Made by a program: the position numbers and the translations under genes. This document shows, in pieces, positions 1 to 48,393 of a DNA stretch of 64,000 nt (its first letter is position 1; each line of letters opens with the position of its first letter). Source of the DNA: an uncultured bacterium (GTDB lineage Bacteria; Omnitrophota; Omnitrophia; Omnitrophales; Aquincolibacteriaceae); NCBI GenBank assembly GCA_964434115.1, contig CAYSSX010000001.1, positions 329,459 through 393,458 on the forward strand. Direction: 5' to 3'. The notes beneath the pieces are model-generated. The model worked only from the letters and a program-made list of their open reading frames with translations. It made no database searches and was not told the origin of the DNA.

Positions 1-1
1 T

Positions 2-445
<444 letters not shown>

Positions 446-486
446 GCGATTCACGTAAAGCGAACAGCCTGATCTCAGAGGAAATT

Positions 487-1725
487 TTATCTGCGGAAAC
501 GGCGCCCGCCGAAAGTACGCTTGCCAAAACCACCACCGCCGCTGCGGCCGCCATGCCCCGGCTTACGGCTTCCGCCGCCGCCCGCAAGAAAAGACTCCAC
601 GGGAATTTCAGGATGCTGGGAAATGGGGAGCGCTGAACGCATGACCTGCTCAATACGGCGGACTTCAAGGCCCTGATCGGGCGTTGCGAAAGAGATCGCG
701 TGGCCTTCGTGGCCCGCGCGGCCGGTACGGCCGATGCGGTGAATGTAATTCTCCGCTTCATCCGGCAAATCATAATTAATGACCAGTTCAATCCCCTTCA
801 CGTCAATGCCGCGGGCGGCAATATCGGTCGCCACAAGCACGCGGTACTTTCCGGATTTAAAACCTTCCAGCGCTTCGCGGCGCTGACCCAGCGTACGGTC
901 GGAATGAATTTCCGCCGCGCTGTGGTTCATCTCGCGGATCGCCCGGGAAATGTAACGGGCGCTCACCTTGGTACGCGCAAACACCAGCACGGAACCGTGA
1001 TACTGCGCCAGCACCTTACCCAGCATTTTGCTCTTCAATTCTTTTTTCACAATGAAAAGCTCCTGCGTCACCCGCTCCGCGATCGTGCCGGCCGGGGCGA
1101 TTTCAACGCTCAAGGGAAGCTTCATATGGGATTTCGCCATCCGCACGATTTCACTCGGCATGGTGGCTGAGAAAAGAAGGGTCTGACGGTCCGAAGGGAC
1201 CATCTTCAAAATTCTTTCAATTTGAGGCGCAAAACCCATGTCCAGCATGCGGTCCGCTTCGTCCAGCACCAGCACTTGAACGTCCCGGAGGCTGACGGTC
1301 CTCTGTTCCATATGGTCCAGCAGGCGGCCCGGGGTTGCAATAATGATGCGGGGTTTCTTTCTCAGGACCGTAATCTGGTTATGCATCGACGCGCCGCCGA
1401 TCAAAACCGCGGAACGCATCTGAAAAGGCTGGCCGATTTTCTGGAACGTTTCATAAACCTGAAGCGCGAGCTCGCGGGTCGGCACGAGGACAAGCCCCAT
1501 TCCCGTCGTGTGCGCGGCAAGGCGCTGAAGCATCGGGACGCAAAACGCGAGGGTTTTGCCGGTTCCCGTCTGCGCGATTCCAATGATGTCTTTGCCTTCC
1601 ACGCAAATCGGAATGGCTTTGACCTGAATCGCCGTGGGGATGGAAAACTTATTTTGTTCGAGAATCTGAAGAAGCCTGGGCGCAATGCCTAGACTGAAAA
1701 AATTCGGGTGTGTTGTTGACGACAT
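487..1725 (-). CDS. DEAD-box ATP-dependent RNA helicase (RhlE/DeaD-like) with an Arg/Gly-rich C-terminal tail
   Basis: Q-motif region is present. Walker A is AQTGTGKT, the DEAD box is VLDEADRMLDMGF, then SAT and HRIGRTGRAG motifs. The C-terminus is a GGGSRKPGHGGRSGGGGFGKR tail. Confidence 0.9.
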   Translation of the reverse strand: MSSTTHPNFFSLGIAPRLLQILEQNKFSIPTAIQVKAIPICVEGKDIIGIAQTGTGKTLAFCVPMLQRLAAHTTGMGLVLVPTRELALQVYETFQKIGQPFQMRSAVLIGGASMHNQITVLRKKPRIIIATPGRLLDHMEQRTVSLRDVQVLVLDEADRMLDMGFAPQIERILKMVPSDRQTLLFSATMPSEIVRMAKSHMKLPLSVEIAPAGTIAERVTQELFIVKKELKSKMLGKVLAQYHGSVLVFARTKVSARYISRAIREMNHSAAEIHSDRTLGQRREALEGFKSGKYRVLVATDIAARGIDVKGIELVINYDLPDEAENYIHRIGRTGRAGHEGHAISFATPDQGLEVRRIEQVMRSALPISQHPEIPVESFLAGGGGSRKPGHGGRSGGGGFGKRTFGGRRFRR

Positions 1726-1828
1726 GCATTTCCTCTTAGGGCTACGAGCGCCCGAGAGAAATCTGCCGGGCGCAGCTTACGTTTAGTTTGTCTGTGATTG
1801 TTTAAATACGGCACAACGGTGCGTTTTC

Positions 1829-2215
1829 TTAATCCTGCAAAAGGGGGGCCGCCAAACGCCGGGATTTTCCCGACTGAACGAGAGCTTCTTTCTTTTTGCG
1901 CGGGTACGCTTTGACTTCACATTCCCGGACCAGGGCCCGGGTCTTTCCGTCACACGCTTCAGAGTATAGCATTTTAACCGGCCGCCGGACACGTGTATAT
2001 CGGGAGGCCTTTCCAGCGGAGTGCATTTTAAGGCGTCTGTCGAGGTCGTTGGTGACCCCCGTATAGTACGACCCGTCGGCGCATTCCAGCATGTAAACGA
2101 ACCAGGATTCGGGCTTCCCTTCTTCCGGGAGCGCCGTCTCCTTTTCCAGAACCGCTATGATTTTCTTGGGCTTTTTGTCCGCGGGCATCTCAGGAATCCG
2201 AAACCAGTTCTTCAA
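1829..2215 (-). CDS. GIY-YIG nuclease superfamily protein (UPF0213-like) with a ~45-aa N-terminal extension
   Basis: The core WFVYMLECADGSYYTGVTNDLDRRLKMH matches the GIY-YIG motif. A basic C-terminus follows. Confidence 0.65.
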   Translation of the reverse strand: MKNWFRIPEMPADKKPKKIIAVLEKETALPEEGKPESWFVYMLECADGSYYTGVTNDLDRRLKMHSAGKASRYTRVRRPVKMLYSEACDGKTRALVRECEVKAYPRKKKEALVQSGKSRRLAAPLLQD

Positions 2216-3182
2216 AAAGTTCCTCAGGCGTGAATTGCCTCAGGTCAAGAATCGTTTGGAAAACCGGGAGGTATTCTTTGAGCTGACGCCCGGTTTCGGA
2301 AACGCCGGCAAGGTTCAGCGGGCGCTGGGTTTGATACCCGGAGATAAAAATTTCCCGGGCTTCCCGCTTGGCTTCTTCCGGGAGCCGGAGCGCGAGGAAG
2401 CAAAGGAAAAACCCCACGTCCCAAATCCGTTTGTCTTCACGCGTGCAGAATTCAAGGTCCGTGAAATAAACGGTTTTCTCATTTTCTTTCCAGATGCAGT
2501 TTACGGGCTGGGTATCAATCAGGGAAAAACCCGCGCGGTGAACCCGGGCCAATCCCGACCCGCATTGGCGGATGACTTCCGCGTCATGCCCGGCCAGGTT
2601 TCCGCGCTCGGCAATGCCCTTTAAAACATCATCCACGCTTTCGCCTGTGAGGAATTCAATGACCATGACTTTCTCCACAGGGTCAAAGGCCACAAGTTTG
2701 GGCACCGGAATGTCTTCTTCGGCAAGCTGCACGCGGCTGACCATATCGACGGTAAAACGTTCATGGGTCTCGCCGCCGTAAATCCTCGGGAAAGGACTGA
2801 CAATCGAAAGGTGGTGCGCCCAGAAACTTCCCGCGGCCACAAACACCTTCACAAAAAACTGAACCGTCTCCCCTTTTTTGTTTTTGAGCCGCCAGACCTG
2901 ATTGGCGTTGCTCAAGCCGCCGGATTTAGATTCCACCTCAAGGGATTCGATGTCCAGCCCTTCAAAAGCCAGACTGTGGCGCCGGAGAAATTCCCGGCAG
3001 GTCTTGACCTTGCGCCATTTGAGCATCTTGGCCCAGGTCAGCATCAAGGAAAAAATCAGCCAGGGCAGGAACACCGTAATCGCGAGGATCAGCTTGGCAA
3101 TCAGCCACGGCGAAGTTCTCCGCATGTTTTTCCAAAACCGCGCTTTGAGGCCTTTAAGGCGTGTGCGGATTTTAATGGGCAT
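2190..3182 (-). CDS. Membrane-anchored lipopolysaccharide-kinase (Kdo/WaaP)-like protein kinase family protein
   Basis: N-terminal TM helix, then a kinase-like catalytic region (LARVHRAGFSLIDTQPVNCIW, DLEFC). Family assignment is by eye only. Confidence 0.45.
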   Translation of the reverse strand: MPIKIRTRLKGLKARFWKNMRRTSPWLIAKLILAITVFLPWLIFSLMLTWAKMLKWRKVKTCREFLRRHSLAFEGLDIESLEVESKSGGLSNANQVWRLKNKKGETVQFFVKVFVAAGSFWAHHLSIVSPFPRIYGGETHERFTVDMVSRVQLAEEDIPVPKLVAFDPVEKVMVIEFLTGESVDDVLKGIAERGNLAGHDAEVIRQCGSGLARVHRAGFSLIDTQPVNCIWKENEKTVYFTDLEFCTREDKRIWDVGFFLCFLALRLPEEAKREAREIFISGYQTQRPLNLAGVSETGRQLKEYLPVFQTILDLRQFTPEELFEELVSDS

Positions 3183-3190
3183 CGACTTTT

Positions 3191-4516
3191 CTACACTTTC
3201 ACAGCGGCCGGCTGTTCAGTTTTCCCTTTGAGAAGAAAATAAACCGGGATGCCCAGTAAAAGAAGGCAGCTTCCCACGGCGGCTTCGCGGGGAGCAAAAC
3301 AAATGTCCGTAATCAGAAGCGCAAAAGAAATGAGCGTAAAGAGCGCGGGAACAAAGGGGTAGCCGGTCAACGCAAACGCCGCCGGATCACGGACTTTTCG
3401 GCGGAGCACAAACACGCTCGCACCCGCCAGGGTGAAGAAAAGCCATTTCGAAAATCCGGTGAAAAACAAAAGCCGGTCAAAACTTCCCCACAGCACCAGG
3501 CCGCAGGCCCAAAGCGCGTTGAACACAAACGCCAGCACCGGGGTGTCCAGGGTGACGTGAACTTTTCCGAGCCAGGAAATACGGCGGGCATCCTGGGCCA
3601 CGGCAAAGGGAATGCGCGCGCCGGTCAGGATATAAGAATTCAGGGCGCCGCTTGCGGAAATCAAAACCGCGATTGTCAGAATCACGCTTCCGGCGGAACC
3701 GTAAAAATTGCCGAAAATCGTGGAGGCAATTGAAGGGGTTGTTTTCATCTGCTCCGGGGTGAGGGCCGCGAGGTAAGCCGAGTTGATGCCCACATAAAGC
3801 GCGGTGATGATCAGAATGCTTGTAATCAGGGAAAGCGGGAGCGCCTTTTTCGTGTCTTTGAATTCCCCGGACATAAAGGTGCTTTCATTCCAGCCGCCGT
3901 ACCCCCAAAGCACGGGAATCAGGGCCGGGGCCAGCTGCAGCCAGCCTCCCCCCGTGGAAGGAAAACCGTGGACAGTACCCGCCGCGGGCCAGGACCGGAG
4001 GTTAAAGAAAATAACCGCGGTCATGGTCAAAAGCGTCAGCCCCTTCAAGACACTGAGAACACTCTGCACCCGGGTGCTGAAGCGGAGGCCTGAGATATTG
4101 AGAACCGTAAAAAAAAGAATGGCCGCAAGCGCGATCCATTTTTCGCTGCCCGGCGCCAGAGGAAGAAGGTTGCGGAGGTACGCGGCAAAGACATACGCCA
4201 CCCCGGCCAGGGACCCGGCGCGGAAAACGGAGATTTCCATCCAGCCAAAAAGAAAGCCCACCATCTTTCCGTAGGCTTCCCGGAGGTAAACGTAGGTGCC
4301 ACCCGTGTGCGGAAAACAGGAGGAGAGTTCGGCATAACAAAGCACGCCGAGCAGAGAAACCGCGCCTCCGATCACCCAGGCGAGAAGAATCATTTCGGGG
4401 GTGCTGAGGTACTTTGCAATTTCCGCGGGAACACGGAAGATACCGACCCCGATCACGATCGCGATGTTGATGGCAATCGAATCCCAAAAGCCAAGCTGTC
4501 TTTTCAAATTCGTCAT
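3191..4516 (-). CDS. APC-family amino-acid permease
   Basis: About 12 predicted TM helices. Several Gly-rich permease motifs are present, for example GVGIFRVP and WGYGGWNESTF. Confidence 0.85.
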   Translation of the reverse strand: MTNLKRQLGFWDSIAINIAIVIGVGIFRVPAEIAKYLSTPEMILLAWVIGGAVSLLGVLCYAELSSCFPHTGGTYVYLREAYGKMVGFLFGWMEISVFRAGSLAGVAYVFAAYLRNLLPLAPGSEKWIALAAILFFTVLNISGLRFSTRVQSVLSVLKGLTLLTMTAVIFFNLRSWPAAGTVHGFPSTGGGWLQLAPALIPVLWGYGGWNESTFMSGEFKDTKKALPLSLITSILIITALYVGINSAYLAALTPEQMKTTPSIASTIFGNFYGSAGSVILTIAVLISASGALNSYILTGARIPFAVAQDARRISWLGKVHVTLDTPVLAFVFNALWACGLVLWGSFDRLLFFTGFSKWLFFTLAGASVFVLRRKVRDPAAFALTGYPFVPALFTLISFALLITDICFAPREAAVGSCLLLLGIPVYFLLKGKTEQPAAVKV

Positions 4517-9360: not shown

Positions 9361-10203
9361 TTACGCCGCGGATTCGACGGCTTTGCGGGAAAGGAATTCG
9401 GTGATAAACCGCTGCAAGTTACCGCGGTCAATGGACAGAACGCCGTCTCCGTCCATCTGCAAAAAGGACGGCCCTTCGTACTGGCCGCCCTTCAGAAGCG
9501 CGGCCCAGACTTTCTTCAAAATCTCGGCCCGGTCCTCCGGGTTCTTTTTCAGGCGCTCGGCCGTGCCCGCAAAATGCGAAGTCAGAAGCGCGCCCGAGAG
9601 CATCGCGATGAGCGCCGCGCTTTCAAAGCCGTCATCCGTCCCCGCCTCCCCCAGCAAGGTCACGGCAAAAGCACTGGCGTTACCCTGAAGCCGGGCCGCG
9701 TTCTCGGGGCTTGAAATCACCGGCATGCTTTCACCGTTGGAAAGCGAGAAACGCGCGCGGTAATTTGCCGGGTCATTCAAGGTTTCAAGCGGAATCCCCT
9801 CCGTATCCAGGAGGGACAAATCCATGCGCTTGGAAACGAGCAGGGTTTCAAAGCGCCCTTTCAAGGCCGGGTTTTCCTCGAGCACACGCCCCAAGGCAAT
9901 CTCTTCCCCCGGGACATCCAGAACCGCGCCCAGTTTTTCTGTTTGCAGAACACTTAACGCGTCCACAAACCAGCCCTGCGCAAAAGCCGCAAGGCGGCTG
10001 TCCATTTTAGGAGGCGCGGCCGTTTCCGAAACAGCGGCTTTCTTTTCCGCCGCCAAACGAACGCCTTCAAGTCTCAGCTCCGCGGCCAAATCCTCCAGAC
10101 CGACCTCTTGGACAACCGCGGCAACCCCGGAGGCCACCCTTTGCGACTGATTCGGATTAAAACCGTTTGAAACCAGGCCCTCGGCAAGCTGATGCGCAAG
10201 ATC
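9361..10203 (-). other. Conserved C-terminal module of giant protein 1 (~280 aa, ends ...AVESAA)
   Basis: Homologous to the C-terminus of giant 2: VVQEVGLEDLAAELRLEGVRLAAEKKAAVSE vs VVRTVLEDLALGRNLRREAAAVLAEKAQRQMPAVES, and GTAERLKKNP...FLSRKAVESAA vs TRITAERLKKLS...FSANRLIQSAA. Confidence 0.75.
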
Positions 10204-13200
10204 ACGGAGTTCGGAACGCGGTTCTTCACCCCGCTCCGCGGCAAGGGCCGTAAGACTGGCCAAGGCCGCTGCCGCAGCTTCCCGAAGGTGCTGTTCAGGG
10301 GCTTGCTCGGCCAGATGTGTGAGTTCGTCAAGGATCTCCTGTCTTGTATCCCCTAAAGCCCCAAGGGCAAGAATAGCATCCTCCACAACAAGGAGGTCGA
10401 CGGGATTCTCGTCATCCGTCAAAATTTTCAAAACTGAGGGCGCTGCGCGCACGGCTGCGGGGCCCATGATGGTTAAACCCATGATGGCAAAATTAAGATT
10501 GAGTCCATGCAGACTGGGAGTTTCCAAAACGTGAACGAGTGCGTCCATGCCGAGATCCAAACCGCCTGCCCCCTGAAAACCAATGAGGTGCACTAAATTT
10601 CCATACTCGCCTGGATAGGCTTCGGCCTGCTGAAGCAGTTCCACCATTCTCGGCACCGTGCTATGGGCGAAAAAACGAAACGGCAAAAGTCCTAAAACTC
10701 CCGCAAACCGTGCAGCGTTCGGCGCCATCAAGAGATTGATTTCATTCTGAATGATCTCAGCACGGTTTGGCGCCTGAATAAAGTTCAAATACTCTGCGGC
10801 GTTAAGGCGGTGCATTTCAAGAGGTCCATTTTCTTCAAGTTCCGGATATATGTCCGTGTGCGCTTCCACGAGGACCTCGGAACTGGTGATCGTATCCTCC
10901 TCCAATCCTGTAAAATCTTTCCCTGAAAGGGCACGCGCGCGTGTCACGCCAAGAGCCATCAGAGCAGAAACCAAACGACGGTCCCTTCTCTGACCGCCAT
11001 CCGCTCTCATCCATTGCCTCAGGCCGGACAAAAGCTGGGTACGAAGTCCGGCTTCTTTTGCGAATTCAAAAGAAAGGGCCGGACCCAGGTAAGCGATCCC
11101 AAGCGCGGCCAAAAGGGCATTGGGACGGTATTCGGAATCCAGAAGCGCGCGCGCGTACAGTCCAAGCCCGGTGTCTTCGAGTTCCTGAGGCAGACCCATC
11201 GCCGGATAAGTCGTCCGAATACGGTCGATGAGCGCCGTGATCCGGGCAAAAATTTCCGTATCCGGAAACGTCGAAATTCCCGCGCGCAGCCTTTGCAGGC
11301 TGGCCCGGATTTCTCCAGAGTCTGGCTGAGCGGCCAACGAGGCGCTGAGTGAATCAACCACCATTTCAAGAACCGCTTTTTGGTCTTCCGTAAAAGCAGC
11401 GCGCAGTTCAGAACGGGCCTCGCCTCTTTCGCGGGAAAGTCCAGTCAGGCTATCGAGGGCCCGATCCGCGGCCTGCCTGACACTTTCGCTCCGGGAGTCT
11501 TCGGAAAGGAGCGAAAGCGCTGCCAAAACATTCCTGTTTGTGTTGCCCAGGGCAGCCAAAGCGTCTACGGCGCTCGTCATCAAAGTCTCATCTAAAACAG
11601 CCGCTCCGCTCAGCAAAGGTAAAACCTGAGGCGCAGCTCTTGAAGCTGCGGGACCCGACATCGTCAAAGCTTTTAAAACGTTTCCCAGCAGGCTTGGATT
11701 GTCCCGAGAGTTTTGCAGAATTCGCAGGAGCTCATCCAGCCCCTGATCTATCCCGCCCGCGCCCTGATGCCCAATCAGTTCAATCAAGTGCTGATGAGCA
11801 GCCGGATAAGCTTCGGGATGCTGCAAAAAGAACACAGCAATTGGGACAACCGAGTAAGCAAGAAACCGGTAAGGCGTCAGCTGAAAATGAATTCCAAAAT
11901 TAGCCGGCTGCTCGGCAAGACGGTTCCGGAGGTTCTGCACGGCCACGGAGCGGTCTGGGCGCTGAAAAAAGCGGAGGTAATCAGAAGCTGTCATTGGCGC
12001 CACGCCAAACAGGTTTTCATCGGCGCCTGAGAAACGGCTGCCTGTAAATGCTTCCCTGACAGGGATACCCAGAGCAATCTTTGCCATGACGAAGCGGCGG
12101 TCGACTTCCTGCCCCGCTGTTGCCATCAAAGCATCAAGCCTCTGAAGGAGCTCGCCGCGAAGCCGCGAATCATTTGTAAATTCAAAAGAAAGGGCCGGAC
12201 CCAGGTAAGCGATCCCAAGCGCGGCCAAAAGGACATTGGGACGGTATTCGGAATCCAGAAGCGCGCGCGCGTACAGTCCAAGCCCTGTGTCTTCAAGCTC
12301 TTCAGGCAAAGCCATCGCGGGGTACGTACTGCGGATACGGTCAAGAGCCACCGCCATTCTTGCGAAAATTTCAGAGTCGGGAAAATTTCCAAGCCCATCG
12401 CGCAATCTTTCGAGGCTGGCACGGATTTCTTCAGACCCGGGCTGAGACGCCAGAGAAGCATTGAGCGAATCTGCAACCAGCCCGATGACCGCTTTTTGAT
12501 CCGCCGTAAAAGCAGCTCTGAGTTCAGAGCGGGACAGCTCACCAGAATCCCCCCCCCTCTCTTCCAAAAGCCCCTTTAAAGACGCCAGGGCATTCCTAGA
12601 AAAATAACGCACCGACTCCTGAGTGTCTTTCTCAGCCGCCTCTTTAAGCGCATCGAGTATAAACTCCGATGTGTTTCCGATAGCCCCCAAGGTTTCTGCT
12701 GCAAGGAAACGCACCCCTTCCTCTTCATCGTTCATTCGGCTTTGGAGCACCCGAACAACCTCCAGGGATGCTTTGCTTCCTGCGGGTCCCATGCCCAAAA
12801 TCATTGTCAGGGCCGCTTCTATCATCCCAAGGCTTGAATCCTGGTTCACCAGAATAGAAATGGCCTCATCCAGTCCCCTTTCGACGGAACCAGGACCTGC
12901 CAAGGACAAAAGTTGCAAGAGATGCAGGGGCGCGCCGCGATACAGCGGGGTCTGGGCATGGCTTAATTCGATAATGCCGGCAACTGCTTGCGGGGCCATA
13001 AAGCGGTAGCGGGCGATCTGAAGAATCGCCTCATAATGGTGATCGGCCATTCTAAGCCTTGCGAGTTGCTGCTGAATCCGGCCGCTGCGTTCAGGAGAAA
13101 GAATAAGATTGAACCATTCCTCTTTTTGCAGCTCCCTGAGGCGTGGTCCTGCGGGGTTGAGAAGCGTCTCATCTTCGATGAGCGGCCTTTGATCCGCATT

Positions 13201-16200
13201 AAAGGCGCCGAGAAGATGCTGCTCGGCCGAATCAGTCGCGTTTTCCAGAGAGCCCGAAAACTTTCCAAATGCATGCACACTTTTCAATGGAACACCGAGC
13301 GCCAGCATCGCAGCCATAACGGACCGGTCTTTTCCGTCAGAGTGGGACGCCAAGGATTGAAGCTCCGTCAGAAGCTTTTCCCGAAGCCCAGGAACGGCTG
13401 AAAATTCAAGATCAAGGGCCGGTCCGAGATAAGCAATCCCGTGAGCCCCCAAAAACTGAGTCGGCCGATGCTGCGACATCAAGGAGTCAAGAGCATACTG
13501 GCCGAGCCCCGCGGATTCCATTTCCTGGGGCAGAGGCACCTGCTGGAAATCACTGCGAATCCGGTAAATCAACGCGGTAAATCGTGCAAATATTTCCGCG
13601 TCGGGAAAATCCCTCATACCGGAAATAAGCTCATTGAAACCGGCAACAAGGGCATCAGAGCCCGGCTGATTAGCAATGCCTGACCGAGCCCATTCAGAAA
13701 CCATTGATAAAACCGATTTTTGCTCCAGACTGAAAGCGGCACGAAGTTCAGAACGGTTTTCACTTCCGGGTCCGGGCAAGGCGAGAGGCGGTTCTCCGGA
13801 ATCCGGCAACACCGTAGCTATCGCGCTCCTCCTGCCGCTCAAGGCCTCCCGCTGCTCCTCAAGCGACTGCCGCGTTTTTTCCGCCATGTAATTCTTGAGG
13901 TGTTTCAAGTATTCCGGGTGACGGGTTTTCACGGTTTCCATAAAACCAAAACGGGCATCCGCCTCAATTCCAAGCGCGGCCATAGACTGAACCACGGAGG
14001 CATGGGTCTCCGGGCGGAGCATGGGGATAAGTGCGATCAATTCCATGTCCTCTTCTGGAGACAGTCTCGCGGCCAAAAGCGCGTCGAGCGCCCATTCGAG
14101 ATTTCTTTCGCTCTGGTACAGCGGCCGGGATAAATCGTTTTCATAAAGATCCCCAAGCCAGTGATTGCTCGCCATAGCATGATCTGAAAAGGCCTTTTGA
14201 AACAGTCCCTTCTTTTGCATCGGCGTCAAATACCGGCTCTCCCCGATTGAAATAATGACCACGGGAATTCCCCGCCGGGCCTTGCCGTTAAAAAAATTCA
14301 TCCCCTGCGCTGACAAACTTTGATAAAGACCATAAGCATCGTCCGGACTGAGCGGGATACCTCCGAGCAGCGCCCCCATCTCCGTAATCAAATAGGCGGA
14401 GGTCTCACCCCTGGGTTTAGGAATCTGATGAGTCAGAAGATTCAGGAGGTCCCGGTTAAAGTCTTCGCCCAGCCCCCATCGCGCAAGCCCTCTAAAAACA
14501 TCTTCCATCTCCATCTCCAGGCGATAGGCCCCCTTATAATCTTCCCTTTTAATCCGCCCATAGGCCTGCGCCCATCCGCCGCCCCATTCAAGAAGCTTCT
14601 TTTTCCGGTCTGCAGCGGTAAGCCCCTCTAGCTCCTGAAGAAAATCTGACCGGGTTTCCGACGGCCCCAGTGTACGAACACTTTCCTCATCGATAATCGT
14701 CACGGGCTGTTTCATCTGGTCTGCATAAAGCTGGGCCGCGTGGGGACGCCCCATCCGGGTCATGAGTTCTGCCAAACGCTGAAGTTCACTATCGCCAAGA
14801 TTCAGGCGCGGAATCAAGCGTATATGCCCGGTCCCCGTGGTCCCTTCGAGCCCCCCCATTTCAAAAGCGCTGAGATTCCGGTAACCGGCCGTAATAATTT
14901 CTTCGTTCATTTCGGGTGGAAGCTTGGCCTGGACAAGCGAAAAGAAAAGGTCCTGCGGCGCGTACCCATAAAGGTCGCGGCTGAAAGATTCGGACAGAAG
15001 GTTCCGGTACACCGCAGAACTTTGCGTATAGAAAAGAAAGAGCCCCTTCTTCTGTTCCGGGCTCAGGTTCAGACGCCCGGTCATACGCACGAGCCGCGTG
15101 ACTTCAACGCTGCGCGTGAAGGCCTTTTTCACGGCGCCCAGAATGTCAGAATCCTGCGGCGCCTTGCCAAGAAGTCCAAGGGCCGCTCCATTCACCCGGC
15201 TGTCGGGATCCATAATTCCCAAACTCAAATAGCGGTCCGCGTCCGCGCCCTGAAGCCATTGAGCGCCATTCTCCAGGCCTTTAAAAACCGCCTGCTTGAC
15301 TTCCGGCGGCTGGGCGGCCGAAAGGTAGCCGTCGGCAAAAGCAATACCTGCGGCGTAATCCGAAGCCAAAAGCACTTGCAAGTGGACTTCAATTTGATCC
15401 AGAGAAGGAAGCACACTTTCTATCTCGGAAACTAAAGCCCCCTCCAATCCGCCGGCATGATAGGGCATCAGTTCAGAAGACGCGGCCGTCGAGACTGTCT
15501 GATAATCAGCCCCTCCCGCGGGGGCTTGCCCGGCTTGAGCCGCAGAAACGCCTGCCTTTTCATACTTGGAAAGACGCTCACGGGCCGTGTCATCGATAGG
15601 AATAAGGTCTCTGAAGAAGTTTTCAAACTCAAGGGCTTGACCTTCCGTGAGGCCTCCCGGGTTAAATAAAAGCGGCGGGATGAATTTCTCGAAAGCCTTT
15701 TGTTTGCCCCCCGCGAGAAACGAACCGGCCAAACTCCTCCAGTCATAAAACTGCAGCCCAAACACCTGTCCGCTGGGTCCCAGAAGGCCCGTGGCGCGAA
15801 AAGCACGCACCCTGCCTGAGTCATCCAAAAGTTCCGGAGAGTCATCGTCAAAATAGAACCTCTCCGCGGCCCCTTCTTTAATAATTTGGGCCTTAAAATC
15901 GATTTCGCTCTTATCCTGGAAACGAACCTTGATTTCGCCGGGCTTCCCTTTCACGTCTCCGATTTCACGGAAAAAGCGCAGGATACCGCGGCGGGTCACG
16001 ATCAAATGAAACCCCGCGGAACCGACCGACATCAAATCACCCCGGTATTCGTCCGAGCGAAAACCGTAGGCGCGGCGCTGATAACCGGAAGGGAAAATGT
16101 TATCATCGGGATGGTTATGCAGATTGGAAGAAATCGTGTTTTTTCCGGGAAACATGGCGCTCACACTGCTCTCATTCCCCTTCAAGATCACAATCTGTTC

Positions 16201-19200
16201 GCCCCTGTTAAATAGATTCACTTCAAACGGCAGCTCTGCAATGTTTCTCAGATCCACCAATGTCGGCTGCGGCACATACGCGTAGAACCCCTGATCGTCA
16301 TTTTCTGAAAACTTCTCCAAAACCTGGCGGATCGAAAGCTGATCACCCAAAAAACGCTCGGCTTTGAGAATTTCAGAAGCGCTGCCAACGTGATTTGTGG
16401 AAGCCCTGATCAAATGCTGAAAAACAAGGCGGCGGACGCTGGGGTTGTGGTGCTTCAAAAGCTGACGTACCAGGTCATTCCCTTCGGGCGTGTTATAACG
16501 CAGAATGTTGGGCACAATTTCTTCCCCCCCATTATTGACGAGAAAGGCAGAGGCAACCCCTTCTGCATCAAGACGCCCCAAACGCTGACGGACGTAAGGT
16601 TCGTATCCTTCCGGCAAGCGGCGCGAAAGAAGAAAATAAGCCAGATGCTGGCGGGCGCGCCGGTCGAGCTGGGCATACGTGCCAGGCTGCAGCATAACCT
16701 CCAGAACTGACAGGGAAAATTCCACACCCCGCTCTACATGCTGGTTGAACCAGTGAAGATCCACACTTCCGCTTTTCCTTCTCACATCACGCATGGCGGC
16801 ATTAAACTTGACCCTGTCGACACCTTTCTGAATAACGTTTCCGATCCTGGCCAGAAGGCCGCCCGGCTTCGAAGGCTGTGCCCCCCCCGGCACCATGGCT
16901 CCTTCGCCTGGCCCGGGGACGGCAGGTAATCCAGGCTCATCATCCTGCATAGCCCTTAATTCGGAACGCGGGAAGCCCCCCTTCAGCACGTAAATCTGGG
17001 AAGCCTCGTCGGGATTATGATTCGTGACGGTGACACGGCCGTTTGCATACTGCACTTCAAAGTGCTGCTTCCCGAGCTCCAGGTTAACACGGTTCGGCTT
17101 TATCGCTCTCGGCCTGTGGCCCTGGGCCTGGACGTACAAACGGCCTTCGCTCACGTGAAAACCAATCACCGGATCCGAACCGTAATCAATCCGGAAAGGT
17201 CCGTCGTAAAAAAACTGCAGCTTCCCGCCGTCCCCTTCCACAAAATTTCTAGGCTGCAGCACTAGGCTGTGCTCGGGCTGAACGCTTTCCAGAATTTCGG
17301 AAGCTTCTTGATCATCCGCAAGACTCTGCTCATCCTGGCTGAGAGGTTCCTTGGGGGCCTTTTTCCGGGGCGAAGGCACGAGCCGTTCTTCGACATGAAA
17401 ACCGTTGGTCGACCCCTGGTTTTGTAGAATGACAAAATCCTGCCCTCCCAGAACATCCGTCATCAGCATCAAGTGGCCGGGACGAACAAAGTCCTCGATC
17501 TGGTGCGGGAGCCATCCTTTGGGCGCTGCTGGAGCCTGGGCGGCTTCGGCTTTATCAAGATCAATCGTGATGCGGTCTGCGGCGCCGGGATCGTCCGCCG
17601 CGCTCCGGGAAATCCGCGTGATCTGTGTAATGGTTTCCGGGCGGTCCGGTGAAATCATGTTTGGCAGGTAGTAATTCCTGACCAGGCCGTTTTCGTCCTT
17701 CCAGGAAATCACAACGGCCGACCGGCCATCCCGGATTTCCCCTGATTCATCCAGCTGAGAGGCCGCATCAAGCTGTTCACTTTTGTTTAAAAACAAATCA
17801 AACAGGCCCGGCAGTGAAACATGGCTGGTTTTGCTCCGGTAAATAAAAAGAGGCTGCCCATCATGGATTTCAACATCGTCGAGTTTTCTCCATTTTCCCT
17901 CCCCTTTCTCGTTGGCCAGGAAAACCTCCAAAAGATATTTGGGAGACGCGGCACCCACCAGCGCCCCGCCGGACTGCGAACTTTCACGCTCCGCCTGCAG
18001 GGATTCAGGAAAACGGACCATCCGGAAAGTCAGATTTCCAAGCTGGAACCTTCCCATATCTTCAAATGGGTATGCCCGGGTCTTTTTGAAAAAGAATTCC
18101 GTAACGCCCTTGGAAACAGATCTCGCATAGGTCCTGGAACTAAACCCCGGCACTTTCCCAAAATCCGCGGGGGCGGCAATAAAACGGTAAGACTCAGCCT
18201 CTTCTTCACTGCGCAATTCAGAGCGCAGCGCATCCTGCCCGCGCTTCACGGCCTCACGCAGCGTCGTGATGGGACGAACCTGCAGCGGGATAATACGGTT
18301 GTCGGCGTCGATGGAAAACTCAACGTCCACCGGGTAGCCGAAATAAGCTGAAAAGCCGTCCACAACCGCGGCTACGGCCAGCTGCTGTTCCCGCGTCAAG
18401 GAACTCTGACTCCGAAGCGCTTCGTCGTTTGCAATCACCGCATACCCCCCGGACTCAAAATCCAGGACCACTTTTTCCTGCTTCTGTCCGATATGCTCCC
18501 TCTGAAATTGATACGACTGGCCTTTGGCCGAAGGTTTCGAAATAAGAAAATAATCCGGGTCTTTGACGGTCTGGTCCACAAGGCCTTTGGCAAGACCATG
18601 GGCCGCTTCAATGCGTACCACCGAAAGGTCCCGTGAAGCGGTGTCCGCGCTAAAGGCCGTGCCGGAAGTCTTGGGGTTGATCATTTCGTCGATCAGAATA
18701 CTTTCCGCACCGGAGGCCCAGACATCCCGAACAGCCGCAAAAAGACCGGCTGTCCCGGTCACGTTTAACTTCGTTTCCTTCATTCCCGCCATCGCTTCTT
18801 CTTCACTGTCTTCTTTCAAACCGGACGAACGCACCGCCACAGCCCCCAGAACCCGGAGACGGTTCGCAAGAGAAACGGAAATGGCCTGAGGGAGGTATAT
18901 TGAAAGAAATGAGACGGTGAAATTCCGAAGCAGGTTCACGAGTCCGTCGATCACAACCGGATCCTCGGCAGCGCGCAAAGCATTCAGCGCAGGTTCCAGG
19001 ATTTTCTTTTCCAGATCTTGCTTGATGCCCGCTGCCGTCCTGTCATCTGCTTCGATCAATTTCAAAACAGACTCAATCTGTTTGACGGTGAGATCCCGGT
19101 AGGCCAAAGCTAGAGTCCTTTTGAGATCTTCTTCCAGATCTCCCTGCGTCTTGAACCAGCGTTCATATTCTGCAGGCTGAATCGCGAAGCCCTGGGGCGC

Positions 19201-22200
19201 TTCAACCTGGAAACCGGCCGGGATTTTATTCTGGGATTTCAGGAATTCAATGGCATGCAGGGTTTCCGCGGAGTTGGAGCCTTTGCCGCCCGCAAGAGGG
19301 CGAGAAAAGCGGTCTTTCAAATCGCTTTTCCAGAGAATCCCGAGTCCCTGAAGAGCTTTGACTTCATTTTCCCGCTCACCGCGGAGCGTCAGAGTCCGGC
19401 TTTCGAGTTCCTGCAAATCCCCTGAAAGTCCCATGGCGTCCAAAACCTGATCCGGAGCGCCCACCGCGCCGGCACGCAGAATCAGGGAGCGGTAACTGAG
19501 CAGCATGGATAATTCATGGGCCGGAAACTGGGCAGCACGTGTGAGAAAATCCCGGATCCCGTAAAAAAGGGCCTGGAGATAAATACGAATCTGCCTGTGT
19601 GCCGTTTCGCGGACCGAAACCTTGCCCGCTTCAATTTCTTTGGCCGTAATGCGTCCCTGCCAGGTGCCATTGGCAAGCGCAATCATTCCCTGAAGACTGT
19701 CAGCGCGGGACATAAAACGTTCGACATCAAGGTAGAGTGCATCCAGTCCGGCTGGAGACTGCGCCAGAGGGCTTTTCAACCGGGCGAGAAGATCCGCCAG
19801 CCCCTTTTCAAAATTGTCGACTTCATTTCCCGCGCGCCCCCGCAGAAAATCTTTCACGATTCCCTGGAGATCCTTCCGGTCTCCAAGCGCCTCCATCAGG
19901 CGGCTCAGCGACTCCGGGCTGAGAAGATTGGAATCCAGCAGTTCGTCGAGGATGGCGCGAAAAAGACTTTCACTGTCGAGAGTTTTAAAGAGTTTCTCAA
20001 GCGGCGCAAGATCAATGACCGCCCCTTCCGCAGCCTGCTGTCCCTGGCGCGCGGCCTCATACCCGCTTTGATTTTTCCAATCAAGAAAGGCCTGGAAATC
20101 AGCCAGTGTTTTTCCTCCGGCTTCCCCAGCTTCGGCAATCACATACAGCGTGCCTTCACGGGCATCCAGATAGACAAGATCGCCTTCCCGGATCGTATGG
20201 GTTTTTTGATTGCCTGCCTTCAATTCATAATAGGAAAGGGTCCGGCCTTTGAAGTCGATCTGCGTTTCAGAAGCATAATCGCTGTAACCTTCGAAAGAGA
20301 AACCTTCGGGGGTAATTCTCGCTGTGTTAAAAATACTGCCTGGTTTCCGGTTCTCTCCCGCACGGACGGAACCGTGCGATTGAACACCCCCCGTGGTCAT
20401 AACGATCCCCAGGGAAGCAAAAAGATGAGGATCATCCGTATTGTCCGCGCTTTCCCCGATCCAAAGCGCTCCCCGGAAATCTTCCGGTGAACGTCCTTCC
20501 TTTTTAAAGCGGGCCACTGCCAGCGTCTTTCCCGGCTGCACAGACAGACCGCCGATCGAAAGCGGGCTTACGGCGTGACGGGCCGTGCTTTTCTCAAAAA
20601 GACCTTCCGGGTCAAACACACCTTTTACCTGCGCCACAGAGTTCACGGCTTCCTCGGATGAAACCGAAGCATCCAGCGAGGATTGACCGGGCGCGGTTTC
20701 CACACTGCGCGCTTTCAAAAGTTCCCGGCCCGCATGTGTCTGTCCAAACCCATGAAGTTTCAAAAGCTCCAAAAGCCCTTCGCTGCTGAGATGGTTGCCG
20801 TTCAGTTTGATCCCGCGCGCCCTGTCATACGTCTGTTCCGGAGAATAGAACCGGCCCAGGTACGCGGCACCTCCGTAATAAGCCTGGCTCTCCGGGTCTT
20901 TGATCAGATCAATGGTGAGGTCTTCATAGAGAAGCGGAATCACAATCCTTTCCACTTCATAGCGCCCCACCGACGCAAGCACACGGTGTTCGGCAAACGG
21001 ACGAATCATCAGCGCCAGCGCTGCCGTCTGCCGGGCATCCAGGGAAAGTCCGCCGTCGGCCCCCTCCGGAAAAAGGTTTTGAAGAAGCGCCTCTACCGGT
21101 GAGCGGAGCGCCGCTTCTTGAAAGGACACTGAAAAGCCCAGGGTCCCGCCCGGGGCATAAACGGCTTCACTGCGGTCCGCGGCCTGTTGAAGGCGGCGGC
21201 TGAGCCTGTCGAGAAAACGCTGTCCGGTTCCCTCCAAAGGCACATTAAATTCCTTCCCAACACCTTTCCAGTGGGCAAGGTCCGGACGCGGGGCCTGAAG
21301 CATGAAAGGCACGCCGCTGTCACGGACAAGGAAGCCGTCTTCCGAGAAACGCTCCGCGATTTTTTCAGCCGCCTGACCGGGATTTGTTTTCAGGGAATCT
21401 GTTTCATTGATCCTCAGGTCAAGATCCTTGGTCGAAGTCAGCGCCTGAATCGCAAATTCCAGTTTTTCGATCATCTCGGCCAGAGAGCTGGCATTGGAGT
21501 CTTTATCGAAAGAGGCATCCAGCGTGTAACCGACCTTGCGCACCTTAAACCCCGCAGCCGTGAAGGCCGCGGCGAGAGAATCAATGCGGATATTGCTCCC
21601 CGGCGCGTAATAACTTCCGCTGTCTGTGTAGTTGATAAACAGCCGCCCTGTCTCCTGAACCGGAGCCAGGGAAAGCTGGATGCGCGCGCTGTGCACCCCC
21701 AAAGGAAGGTTGATCAAGGCCCGGTTTTCGGTGGAAAGGATGACGGCATCCTTGACCGGAAAAAGAAGATTGTTGCGGTGGATCAACTGCCCCTTGGCCA
21801 AGGCTACGGCCGCAAGTTTCACCGGAAGCGGATGATTGCTGTCCGGGGCTGAGCGGGCATCCAGATAAGAAAATGGAACGTTCAGCAAAGGTCCCAAAGC
21901 GCCGCCCGTCCCTTTCTGATTGAGCAGAACCGCTCCCTGAGCCGCGCTGCCGTCCGAAGGAAAAAGAGTCGAGAGATTGCGCACGCCTTTTTGGTGAACA
22001 ATATTGACGAGTTCGTGAAAGCTGGTTCCCTTGATCGCATCATAGCGGGCGGTTTCCTTGGCAATGCCGCCCAGGACCTGCTGCTGATACTGACGGTACT
22101 CAGCGTAAGTCACGCCTTTGATCAGGGCCGGATGATCTTTTTCTGTTTGCTCGGCGGGCGTGAGGATAAGCGAGGCTGAAGAACGGGCATCGAGTTCCTG

Positions 22201-25200
22201 GATCATTTTGTTGATAAACGGGTCCAGAAGATCCGTGTCCTTGGCCCCGGGCTGAAGAATCGAAAGGGCGTATTCGGTTTCTTCACGGATGCTGAGGAAG
22301 AGCTTGGCAATAGCTCTTCCGCCCGCAAGGTCTGACGAAGATTTGGAAATCGCATCAATACTCAAACCGGGATTTTGTTTCTTGAAAAGAACCAGATAGG
22401 CTTTCACCATTCTTTCCATCGCGCTGAAAAGCAGGCGCATATCTTCCACCGTCTTGTCCTGTTTCATCAAAAGATTGATGACTTCCGCATTCAGGTCTTC
22501 AAAGGCTTCGAAGTCGCCCATGAGTTTCCGCGCCGCCGCATTCGACTGCCCCGCAGAACCGGTGCGGGAGAGCGAATAGGTGGTTTCATGAAACACCTGG
22601 TCACGCGGATCAAACTCATAATAGGAAACCGGTTTTTCCGCCGAAACCGAGGGGGTCACCCACGGGTATTGCGGCGCTGACTGAGGCCCCGGTGTGCCGG
22701 CGCCGGTCTGCTGATCAGGCTGCACCAGGTTGGTCCAGAAATCATGAGATGTCCCAGAGCTTTCAGGATCCATGTTCAAGATTCCTGAAAGAGCCGCTGG
22801 AGACACATTCGAATCTCCGGTCGCGCTCAACAAGCCATTATTTAAAGCCTCCCTGACAAGCAGCGCAAGCAGACGAAGCCGGACCGGGGCCGGGAAACCC
22901 GCAATTTTTCCCACAAGTTCTTTTCTCTGCTCCATACCCAGAATCCCGAAGACGCGCGCCAGGGATTCTGCGGCGGCCGCAGAGGGAGAAGCCCCCTCCA
23001 GGCGTTTGAAGAGAAGGTTGATCAACTGAGAGGCTTGTGCCGTATCGTCGGAAAGCACCGCGGGAAGGGCATGCCCAAGAACGCCTTCAACAGCTTCCGG
23101 ATGATTTTGCATGAGAGCCGCTAACTCAGCCCGCTGATTGTCCCGAAGTTCCTTATCAAGATAAGGGTAAATACGCGCCCGCAGAGACGCATCCTGATAA
23201 ATCTCTGCCTGCTCATAGAGATCGTCGATTACCGCGGCACGCTCCTCGGCCGTAAGCCCGGGCAGTGCAATCGCCATCCCTCGGACAGCGCCGGGATTTT
23301 TCAGTTCAAACTGCTCATCAAGGATTAAAAGGATTTCCTGGCGCATCGCGCCGTACCAGGGCGTGATTCCGGCATCAGGCGCAAGCCACCGGGCGAGCAT
23401 GTAACCAAGGCCTTCGTAATAACCTGCCTCCCCGCCTCCAAAACTTTTTAGGTAATTAAAAACCGCGTCATTCTCTGCGGGAATCATCGCCCCTGTGGCC
23501 AGGATCATTGCAAAAAAAGGCAGATCTTTCTCAGTCGAAAAACCGTAGCCCTCAGTGCCCTTGGTGACGGCGGAAACAATCTTGCCGCTCCATTCCAATT
23601 GGGCAGGTTCCGGCAGCAAATCAAACGCCCACGATTTTGCAAAATGGAGCGCTTCAGACACTGCGGCATCCCCGCTCCCCTGCGCCTCCAAAGCCGAAAG
23701 CTCGGCAAGGAATTGTTTGTGAAGAGCCTGCATCTGGTCCACGCTTTCCAAATCAATACCCGCGTCGATTTGAGCTGCGGGGCTCTGTACCGGATTAAGA
23801 CTATCAAAAAGGCTAAGATGACCGGCGGCCGCCAGGACAGCCGGAATGTCGCTTGAGATTTGGCCGGCGACCGCTTGAAGAATTTTCTGCTGCACGTCAG
23901 CGGGCAGAAACGAATACCTGTTTGCCAGAATAGCCAGAGCTTCCGGCTGAACGGAAGAGACCGTCAGCAGGACTTCCGCAGCCCGAAGAAATTGCTCTTT
24001 ATGAATGCCAAAGGCGCCCCCATAGGAATCAAAAATGAGTCCCAATGCCTTGAGCGCATTCTCATCCGCCGTGTTGTCCTGCATCTTTTTGAGGGCACTT
24101 TCAAAAACAGATTCGCGGTCGTCTTTCCGAGGAATTTGATTGCCCAGAAGCAGGTACGCAAGTCCTATCATCATTTGTTTCTCAGGCGCTTTATTGAGAA
24201 TTTTTTTGACCATTTTAGGATCCAGAACTTCCGGAGCGTTTGAACTTAAGAAAGCGGCAGCTTCGAAGACCTCGGCACTGGGGAATTTACTTTCAAGCTC
24301 TAAAAGAAGTGCGTTCTTGAACTCCACCGCTTTGCTTTTCATCGCCGGGGAAAGCTTGGAGAGAAATGCAGCCGCATGGGCCCCTTCAATCGGATATTCC
24401 AATTCCCCGGCTGTAACGAACTCAGAAAGATAATTATCGGCAAGCTTCTTCGAATGCGGATCCAGGTAGTCATACAGAGAGATCAAGGACGAGACAGCAG
24501 CCTGGCGGTCCAATGCATTGGAATGAAGTTTATTCAATTTATGCTTGAGGGTCGTGAAAACAGCGGCTATACGTTTTTGAGGGATTTTGTTTGCCAGCTT
24601 TCCCAAAGCAGCGGTGGCGGCAGCTGTATAGTGTTTATTGTTTTGGCTTGCCAGAGTCAGCAGCTTTGGGACAAGTTGATCCTGCACAATATCCGACGTA
24701 AGCTGAACTAAAAGATCCTGGGAGGGCAGCTTCGCACTCTGAATTGAGAGCGCCGTCAAAGCAGCATTCTGAATGAGCGGCATTTCCTGGTTCTCTTCCG
24801 CTGGCAGGCTGTCACTCCAGGCCTCCCTCGCAATCAAGCCTAATGCGTAAAATGCAAATAAAGCGGCCTGCTCTTCCGGTTTCGAAATTTTTTCAAGAAT
24901 GATTTTAAAAAATTCTGATTTTTCATCAGGGGTCAGGTGATCATAAATTGCTGCGGTATAGGGAAAGGCTGTCAGCTCCTTGCCTTCTTTCACCAACTGC
25001 AGCAGGTCTTTGCGGATACTTTCATTCAAGGCTTCATTATCAGAACTTGCCATGCCCTGTGCCAAAGCGGCCAGAAGCGCCGGGTTCGCAACCAAAGCCC
25101 CGGTTTTGATTTGTGCGGCCAGAGCCTTGTAAGCCGCGGCCCCTTGCGGGGAATCCGCAGAGTCGCCGCTTTCGGTGTGCAAATACAAAACGGCTTCGAG

Positions 25201-47490: not shown

Positions 47491-48393
47491 TTAGGCCGCG
47501 CTCTGAATCAAGCGGTTGGCGGAGAACTTGAAGGCTATTTCGAGAACCAGACGCGTGATACGGAGACGGCTCCCCTGCATCTGGAGAATCCCCGGCAGAA
47601 ACTCGGACAGTTTTTTGAGACGTTCCGCCGTGATCCGCGTCTTCCCGTCTTCGGCCAGCATCCGGGAAAGCAGAATCACCACGGGCAGCTCCTCACCGGC
47701 TTCGACTTCCGAAAGGACCGCGCGTCCGGAGAAATCGGAAAGCAGTTCCGCGTCCGGGAGACCGTAGACCAGGGCGCTCCCGAACTCATGCAGGTAACCC
47801 GCCAGGGATGCCGACAAAACCGCCTCGTTCATCTCCACGGGCGTTGCCACGCCCAGACTTCCCGCTTCCTGGAAAAAATCTTTCACGGCCGGGTCCTCCA
47901 TTTCATGCTCGAGCACCATCACCTTGACTTTCGCGGTCAACTGGGAAGGAAACGCGTCCCGGAGGGCTCCGAGTGTTCTTAAATAATTCAGCAGCCCGGC
48001 GCGCGCCTTTTCACTGCGGGGCAGCCGGTAGCCAAAAGCAAAAACGAGTTTCTTGGAAGTGTCCGCGCTCAAAGCCTTACGCACATCCCTTTCAAAACCG
48101 GCGAGCAGTTCCTGATAAAAAGCCGTTTGGGCCGTATCGTAATCGGGGTGCACTTCCTGGACATCCTCGGCCGCGGCCCGCCGTGGTTCCGATCCCGCGC
48201 TGAGAAGACTCGCGTAATGGGGATCCTGTCCCTGCTCACGCAAAGCCGATTCTACGGCCGGCATTTGACGCTGCGCCTTTTCGGCCAGCACGGCGGCTGC
48301 CTCCCGCCGCAGATTTCTTCCAAGGGCCAGGTCTTCAAGAACCGTCCGAACAACGTCCTGAAGCGCCTCGGCGCCGGTGTCTCCGCCGGACAA
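47491..48393 (-). other. Conserved C-terminal module of giant protein 2 (~300 aa, ends ...RLIQSAA)
   Basis: Paralogous to 9361..10203 (see that feature). Confidence 0.75.

Follow-up and report, generated by a model that had tools for sequence, protein, structure and literature searches.

The subject of this study is a 64,000-nt stretch of contig CAYSSX010000001.1 (assembly GCA_964434115.1, positions 329,459 to 393,458), referred to here as the window, which comes from an uncultured bacterium of the Omnitrophota and carries two very large genes on its minus strand. Within giant gene 1, a module of roughly 1.2 kb occurs three times in tandem, and two of the copies contain a stretch of nearly identical DNA. 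The locus therefore raises the question of whether the module was triplicated recently and still varies in copy number between strains, as a preliminary description had proposed, or whether an old repeat is being kept similar in part by local exchange. We consider the second answer very likely, namely that a cassette bounded by the pentapeptide RSELR was triplicated in ancient times, has been stable at three copies, and has undergone recurrent short-tract gene conversion in the 5′ parts of the second and third copies.

The three units of giant gene 1 and their age

The protein encoded by gene 1 consists of a signal peptide and a TIKI-like N-terminal domain (N-domain), a long helical region, a PPDK_N domain, two unknown segments, three repeat units, and a C-terminal module. 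Cutting the protein at RSELR sets the limits of the units, which we call U1, U2, and U3 (Table 1). The units are consecutive and in frame (408, 372, and 399 aa) and are collinear along their full length, with protein identities of 37% for U1-U2, 37% for U1-U3, and 53% for U2-U3 and with BLASTP E-values from 1e-61 to 6e-111. A loop of ∼30 aa that is present in U1 and U3 is missing from U2. A profile of the units found exactly three copies in gene 1 (E ∼1e-177 to 1e-191 each) and no degenerate extra copies elsewhere in gene 1 or in gene 2. A direct-repeat search recovered the 1116- and 1224-nt spacings, and Tandem Repeats Finder, run over the whole window with a period limit of 500, reported nothing at the locus, the copies being too diverged.

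The preliminary description had thus recognized the three collinear units of ∼370 to 410 aa correctly, and its RSELRAAF start is found in them. The spacing that it gave after this start is one residue short, as two free residues precede the next conserved positions (RSELRAAF..(E/D)QK.V). Likewise, the position at which it began the region, 10204, is the last base of the RSELR that closes U3, and U3 itself ends at 10219. The duplicated alternative-frame open reading frames (ORFs) that it mentioned do exist (Table 1); they are by-products of the conserved 5′ parts of U3 and U2, and nothing suggests that they are protein-coding.

To what fold the unit belongs is clearest for its C-terminal half. 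Pfam placed a HEAT_2 domain near the C-terminus, with 31.8 bits for U1 (cut-off 27.7), a score below the cut-off for U3 (21.5 bits), and no match for U2. A search of 1.84 billion representative proteins with the three-unit profile returned 3,065 hits, the best 150 of which are generic HEAT proteins that all align within profile positions ∼212 to 394, which is the HEAT part. The same search detected no relative of the first ∼200 residues of the unit, and neither Pfam nor NCBIfam matched anything in its first half. The predicted structure is all-helical, with a solenoid of stacked helical hairpins of the HEAT/ARM type in the C-terminal half. On this model, the unit is predicted to comprise a helical subdomain of ∼120 to 160 aa, which is the part subject to conversion, a variable or disordered loop, and the HEAT/ARM solenoid.

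The divergence of the units is large at the DNA level. In whole-unit comparisons between paralogs the nucleotide identity is 48 to 58%, and the identity at third codon positions (0.35-0.40) is near the random expectation. In the last ∼280 codons the number of synonymous substitutions per site (dS) is saturated and not computable, and the number of nonsynonymous substitutions per site (dN) is 0.62 to 0.92. Among 185,579 species genomes only one related locus was found, L001 (contig CAYRBY010000050.1), from a metagenome-assembled genome of an uncultured bacterium that was recovered in a different study. The giant ORF of L001 is collinear with gene 1 (70.8% identity over 4,035 aa), has RSELR at the equivalent boundaries, and contains three units of 408, 373, and 399 aa. 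The orthologous units U1, U2, and U3 are 71%, 76%, and 54% identical between the window and L001, and paralog comparisons give 36 to 54%. Since an ortholog that is 71% identical has three units of matching lengths, the triplication is old and predates the split of the two lineages, which are themselves separated by a dS of ∼1. Copy number and unit lengths appear to have been stable since that split, a count that covers the window and L001 (n = 2), the third ortholog, L003 (contig Ga0209573_1000159), ending before the module. In searches for further carriers, module patterns run against metagenomes and a word-index search of proteins with U2 and U3 both came back empty. The PAP2 and CBS genes downstream, looked up by exact match to reach further assemblies, are not on record, and the ABC-F gene led to nothing but short Logan contigs that lie far from the module.

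Gene conversion between U2 and U3

The near-identical DNA lies in the 5′ parts of U2 and U3. The tract covers 116 nt, of which 114 are identical between the two copies; these are offset by 1116 nt, in frame, and match without interruption over at most 54 nt. Over a wider interval (11057-11205 versus 12173-12321), 138 of 149 nt agree, which bears out the ∼150 nt of near-identity described previously, except that the second interval given then (12168..12321) is ∼5 nt out of register. Over the whole of the first 120 codons, the zone of concerted evolution (11056..11415 versus 12172-12531), nucleotide identity is 79% and the orthology signal is lost. The remainder of U3 (10219..11055) is only ∼45 to 50% identical to the matching part of U2 and is saturated in dS. 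The 3′ edge of the tract coincides with the collapse of U2-U3 identity to ∼45%, as would be expected of homology-dependent exchange. U1 shares no exact run longer than 11 nt with U2 or U3; it is too diverged for conversion and has taken no part in it.

Support for conversion also comes from a comparison of both genomes, in which the U2 and U3 sequences of the window (W2, W3) and of L001 (L2, L3) were aligned and split into windows of 15 codons. Every 15-codon window within columns 121 to 412 has informative sites that favor orthology, grouping W2 with L2 and W3 with L3. In columns 1 to 120, quartet sites are divided among orthology (4), concerted (13), and crossed (7) patterns, and the four sequences are about equidistant (dN 0.12-0.14, dS 0.75-1.27). 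Within the tract of the window (columns 76-120), W2 and W3 have a nucleotide identity of 89 to 98%, an identity at third positions of 73 to 100%, which is 87 to 100% in the homogenized patch itself, and a dS of 0.15, and the dS of the other pairs in tract columns is 0.45 to 1.4. L001 has a tract of its own in another place (approximately columns 40-62), with a perfect run of ∼53 nt and a dS of 0.13. A GENECONV-style permutation of polymorphic sites gave p < 5e-5 for the within-genome pairs W2-W3 and L2-L3, with concordant runs of 16 and 22 polymorphic sites, and none of the four between-genome pairs was significant. Taken together, these data support gene conversion that is real but local, affecting only the first ∼120 codons of U2 and U3, with tracts that arose independently in the two lineages.

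The history that we propose would have begun with a triplication in two steps, in which U1 split off first as the oldest branch and U2 and U3 arose as sisters. The last ∼280 codons of each unit would then have diverged to synonymous saturation, while recurrent short-tract conversion within the gene would have kept the first ∼120 codons of U2 and U3 similar. The exchange may be a RecA-type, non-reciprocal transfer between U2 and U3, and it would be limited to the part in which the copies are still similar enough to pair; there it would be self-sustaining, and U1 would be excluded from it. As for function, the unit may act in binding or as a scaffold, with the homogenized N-terminal subdomain as its constant part and the divergent solenoid as its variable binding part.

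Several observations weigh against this history. The stability of the copy number rests on the two genomes carrying the module, the model of the unit is of moderate confidence (predicted local distance difference test score 71.5) and was built from an alignment of three sequences, and the window assembly was judged from contigs. Moreover, the U3 orthologs differ from each other as much as paralogs do (54% identity), which could mean hidden paralogy and hence a past change in copy number. According to this alternative, an ancestor had at least four units and the lineages lost different ones, so that the U3 copies of the window and of L001 are not true orthologs; we regard it as unlikely, although it is the most serious competitor. 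In its favor, the C-terminal dN between orthologs is 0.56 for U3 as against 0.22 for U1 and 0.16 for U2, and U2-U3 paralogs have 0.62 to 0.64; between orthologs, the C-terminal half of U3 (window 10219..11055, L001 10361..11197) thus changes ∼3.5 times faster than that of U2. Also, U3 in L001 is followed by an extra segment of 20 aa, RSELRAAAIAPAQQSIQSTD (11198..11257, aa 3733-3752 of the partial ORF), which is bounded by two motifs, begins RSELRAA like a unit, and has no counterpart in the window. However, U3 has exactly the same length in both genomes (399 aa), and an outgroup-polarized test offered too few sites to decide, U3 having 3 shared versus 4 to 5 private changes and U2 about as many of each. 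The fast divergence of U3 could reflect either an accelerated evolution of the last copy, which explains the data equally well, or the retention of different copies of a four-unit ancestor. The extra segment is weak evidence for a lost unit, because spacers of ∼20 aa between motifs are common in the family. That same segment, and a 98% identical tract at an in-frame offset that could in principle support unequal exchange, would speak for a recent triplication whose copy number is still changing between strains by unequal crossing-over. This we consider highly improbable, as the units are 37 to 53% identical and saturated at synonymous sites, three units of matching lengths are present in the ortholog as well, and the segment need not be the vestige of a unit. 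The claims of a recent origin and of strain-to-strain variation in the preliminary description are accordingly not upheld, both genomes that carry the module having three copies; of the ongoing crossing-over or gene conversion that it suggested, conversion over ∼120 codons at the start of U2 and U3 is supported and a changing copy number is not.

The identical tract itself could have other causes, each of which we judge extremely improbable. At the protein level it falls within the best-conserved segment of the unit, and selection might act there on the nucleotide sequence by way of codon constraint, an internal signal, or an RNA element inside the gene, but the same columns show a third-position identity of only 0.47 to 0.53 and a dS of 1.0 to 1.4 across orthologs, the tract of L001 is at a different position, and Rfam has no match anywhere in the window. 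With dS values of 0.45 to 1.4 in the tract columns, constraint on the nucleotide sequence itself is therefore effectively ruled out. The window probably derives from a metagenome-assembled genome, and an assembly or consensus error in which short reads of one repeat are mixed with those of another could in principle produce identical tracts. Against such an artefact, exact repeats do not exceed 54 nt, which is below the usual final k-mer and read lengths, two mismatches are kept inside the tract, and the independent assembly of L001 has the same architecture with a tract of its own. For the same reasons, that is, the short exact repeats and the agreement of two independent assemblies, a collapse or expansion of the assembly at this locus, which had been anticipated, appears unlikely. 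Ancient triplication with local conversion would make the locus an ordinary case of old intragenic duplication and local concerted evolution and not a hot spot of strain variation or misassembly.

The R[SA]ExR motif and the N-terminal domain of the giant proteins

The limits of the duplicated unit coincide exactly with successive RSELR motifs, which led to the observation that this motif is a delimiter throughout a family of giant proteins. In the six-frame translation of the window RSELR occurs 12 times, always in frame within the giant ORFs (seven in gene 1 and five in gene 2). With three RAELR in gene 2 the total of R[SA]ELR is 15, none of them outside the giant ORFs, and the two proteins contain no other R[SA]ExR. 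In gene 2, the motifs stand between GNAT, HEAT plus HATPase_c, membrane, and NUDIX modules. The motif follows PPDK_N by 6 residues in gene 1 and HATPase_c by 3 residues in gene 2, and in both structure models it lies in low-confidence linkers, at boundaries between unrelated modules. All five codons of RSELR vary freely, and selection therefore acts on the peptide; for this reason a DNA-level site, such as a recombination signal, was rejected. Literature searches returned no mention of the motif as a delimiter. The sole match, RSELR as a motif of the catalytic region of PL7 alginate lyases, was set aside as a coincidence, the motif here being in disordered linkers between unrelated domains.

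Motif density was counted in 79 loci. ORFs that start with the N-domain contain 348 motifs in 204,376 residues (1.70 per 1000 aa), and other frames of at least 1000 aa, which are neighboring giants, contain 55 in 37,637 (1.46 per 1000 aa). In ordinary frames of 150 to 999 aa there are 15 in 262,199 residues (0.057 per 1000 aa), which equals the expectation from composition, so that the family giant ORFs are enriched ∼30-fold. The family loci, L002 to L081, are metagenome and genome contigs coding for relatives of the N-domain. The spacing between motifs has a median of 254 aa and a second mode at ∼20 aa. Spacers of ∼20 aa and low complexity recur between two motifs, as at aa 749, 769, and 789 of L021, and nine are exactly 20 aa long. 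Each locus favors a middle residue of its own (permutation p < 2e-4), and the preferred form differs between lineages, being RSELR, RAEVR, RAEAR, or RAETR. At the C-terminus, complete ORFs of the family carry the tail ...R[SA]ExRxxx[SA]A-COOH or a degenerate version of it (e.g., L007, L009, L016, L020, and L026); the tails of gene 1 (...SRKAVESAA, 9364..9400) and gene 2 (...NRLIQSAA, 47494..47530) are degenerate. The C-terminal modules of genes 1 and 2 gave no significant match to each other by BLASTP, although their extreme tails are alike. Motif-bounded segments are duplicated also in L037 (aa 644-2039), L060 (aa 710-1314), and L036 (several), at 33 to 47% identity, and the duplication of whole cassettes recurs across the family. 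Some giants with the N-domain have no R[SA]ExR at all (L059, L078/L080, L028, and L077). In L059 and L078 the pentapeptides GASLG or A.SLG are repeated, which may be an alternative delimiter.

Genes 1 and 2 have the N-terminal domain of ∼600 aa in common, and 331 relatives of it were found in metagenome contigs of the Joint Genome Institute (JGI). No Pfam, NCBIfam, or PDB-sequence profile matches the domain. The model of the gene 1 domain shows an alpha/beta fold of the TIKI, erythromycin-esterase, TraB, and ChaN type. Residues D77-x-H79, E107, R423, and H451 (in GGFH) are invariant in 11 aligned family members. The spacing of 28 residues between H79 and E107 is that of the catalytic pairs of RRSP (H3902/E3930) and Bcr135 (H85/E113) (PMC6254334). 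Compared with the TIKI signature of two His and two Glu, judged from sequence positions alone, the first acid in gene 1 is Asp and not Glu. In view of the invariant D-x-H, E, and H and the 28-residue spacing, the domain may be an active hydrolase, and the superfamily in question has site-specific peptidases among its members.

The neighborhood of the giant genes contains no separate protease gene. The presence of the motif at module boundaries downstream of a TIKI-like hydrolase suggests the hypothesis that the giant proteins are polyproteins. It is conceivable, though we put it forward tentatively, that R[SA]ExR, here RSELR, is a processing site and that a catalytically intact N-terminal hydrolase of the TIKI superfamily cuts at the delimiters in cis or in trans, releasing the modules as individual proteins. 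If so, the three units would be released 1:1:1 as paralogous HEAT adaptors of ∼400 aa with a constant, converted N-terminal subdomain and divergent solenoids, and the unit of duplication, from motif to motif, would be the unit of function. Hundreds of Omnitrophota giant proteins begin with the TIKI-like domain and are segmented by R[SA]ExR. The motif offers explicit candidate cleavage positions that can be tested by proteomics and rational cut points for the structure prediction and annotation of giant proteins.

Two further sets of observations concern the modules between the delimiters. In gene 2, hydrophobic stretches that resemble transmembrane segments by eye lie between delimiters at 51145..51906 and ∼57000..57400. 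Different modules of the same chain may therefore be located on opposite sides of a membrane, although several of them (GNAT, NUDIX, HATPase, and PPDK_N) need cytoplasmic cofactors. At locus L084 (ERZ27292242 k141_4183459; 16287..21788 and 1..3402), which has an 80% identical ABC-F gene and the same gene order, the position of gene 1 is occupied by a giant of 4,293 aa with different cargo, only the N-domain of which resembles gene 1 (41%). In the position of gene 2 there is a protein of 1,817 aa, as against 4,001 aa in the window. These differences in cargo indicate that module content turns over much faster than the flanking genes.

Table 1. Positions in the 64,000-nt window of the giant genes, the repeat units, the converted DNA, and the delimiter motifs
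Feature	Position	Strand	Comment
Giant gene 1	9361..29811	minus	ORF of 6,816 aa, 20.45 kb
Unit U1	13755..12532	minus	aa 5353-5760, 408 aa
Unit U2	12531..11416	minus	aa 5761-6132, 372 aa
Unit U3	11415..10219	minus	aa 6133-6531, 399 aa
RSELR codons opening U1	13741..13755	minus	
RSELR codons opening U2	12517..12531	minus	
RSELR codons opening U3	11401..11415	minus	
RSELR codons closing U3	10204..10218	minus	open the C-terminal module
Gene conversion tract, U3 copy	11063..11178	minus	114/116 identical to 12179-12294
Gene conversion tract, U2 copy	12179..12294	minus	partner of 11063..11178
Zone of concerted evolution, U3 side	11056..11415	minus	first 120 codons of U3, N-terminal helical subdomain
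Zone of concerted evolution, U2 side	12172..12531	minus	first 120 codons of U2
Diverged part of U3	10219..11055	minus	variable loop and HEAT/ARM solenoid
Alternative-frame ORF	11019..11369	minus	116 aa, +1 frame relative to gene 1
Alternative-frame ORF	12126..12542	minus	138 aa, +1 frame relative to gene 1
Gene 1 N-domain	27817..29811	minus	aa 1-665, signal peptide and TIKI/Ere/TraB/ChaN-like fold
First RSELR of gene 1	27816..27802	minus	directly after the N-domain
Gene 1 RSELR, first bases	27816, 18225, 16968, 13755, 12531, 11415, 10218	minus	
Giant gene 2	47491..59496	minus	4,001 aa, 12 kb
Gene 2 N-terminal part	56848..59496	minus	aa 1-883, signal peptide and domain common with gene 1
Gene 2 RSELR, first bases	56847, 53658, 51906, 51144, 48408	minus	
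Gene 2 RAELR	about 57459, 54972, 49065	minus	

Comparison with known systems

Concerted evolution by gene conversion is known from tandem paralogs in general and from the repeated domains within surface proteins of bacteria. As in such intragenic repeats, the units of gene 1 are in tandem and in frame, copies within a genome are closer to each other than to their orthologs in short tracts, synonymous sites are homogenized, and the tracts are independent in different lineages. In contrast to them, gene 1 has two participating units out of three, each with its 5′ third only, and the rest is saturated and orthologous. The copy number of the units also appears stable, whereas near-identical repeats of variable copy number are typical of surface proteins. 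In its C-terminal half the unit is like the alpha-solenoid modules of the HEAT/ARM type (alphaRep, the PBS-lyase HEAT-like proteins CpcE/F, and importins). It is unlike them in its N-terminal ∼200 residues, including the converted subdomain, which have no detectable relative.

Giant proteins of the Omnitrophota, the 'Archaeovorins' and other multi-enzyme giants, have been described by West-Roberts et al. (2023, bioRxiv 10.1101/2023.11.21.568195) and in a 2026 preprint (10.64898/2026.06.07.730766). The genes described here resemble them in that the host genome belongs to the Omnitrophota, in their repertoire (HEAT_2, PPDK_N, HATPase_c, NUDIX, and GNAT acetyltransferase), and in that the internal repeats are mostly old and diverged and are not nucleotide tandems. 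The placement in the Omnitrophota agrees with the ABC-F protein of the window, whose named matches at 60 to 64% identity come almost entirely from Omnitrophota/Omnitrophica, although the best named match (65%) bears the label Verrucomicrobiae. They differ in being smaller (6,816 and 4,001 aa), and Pfam found no C39, S8, or SecA domain in either. According to the definition of Seymour et al., as cited in this literature, extreme length means an ORF of at least 20 kb, or at least 7,000 aa. Gene 1 has 20.45 kb but 6,816 aa and gene 2 has 12 kb, so the combination of extreme length with C39, S8, or SecA domains is not seen in them. Term searches of the two preprints (10.1101/2023.11.21.568195 and 10.64898/2026.06.07.730766) did not find a TIKI-like N-domain or R[SA]ExR, and West-Roberts et al. 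state that the cleavage points in Omnitrophota giant proteins are unknown (10.1101/2023.11.21.568195).

A further comparison can be made with the MARTX toxins, multi-effector polyproteins that are autoprocessed between their effector domains. In MARTX, processing is carried out by a domain of the cysteine protease type, which cuts after Leu. The candidate enzyme here is, unlike this protease, an N-terminal TIKI-like domain, and the candidate site is R[SA]ExR. The likeness is in the architecture, as both are very large chains that join unrelated modules, have a short conserved peptide where the modules meet, and contain a hydrolase from a superfamily that includes peptidases. That superfamily is represented within MARTX itself, since the RRSP effector is an endopeptidase of the TIKI family (PMC6254334).

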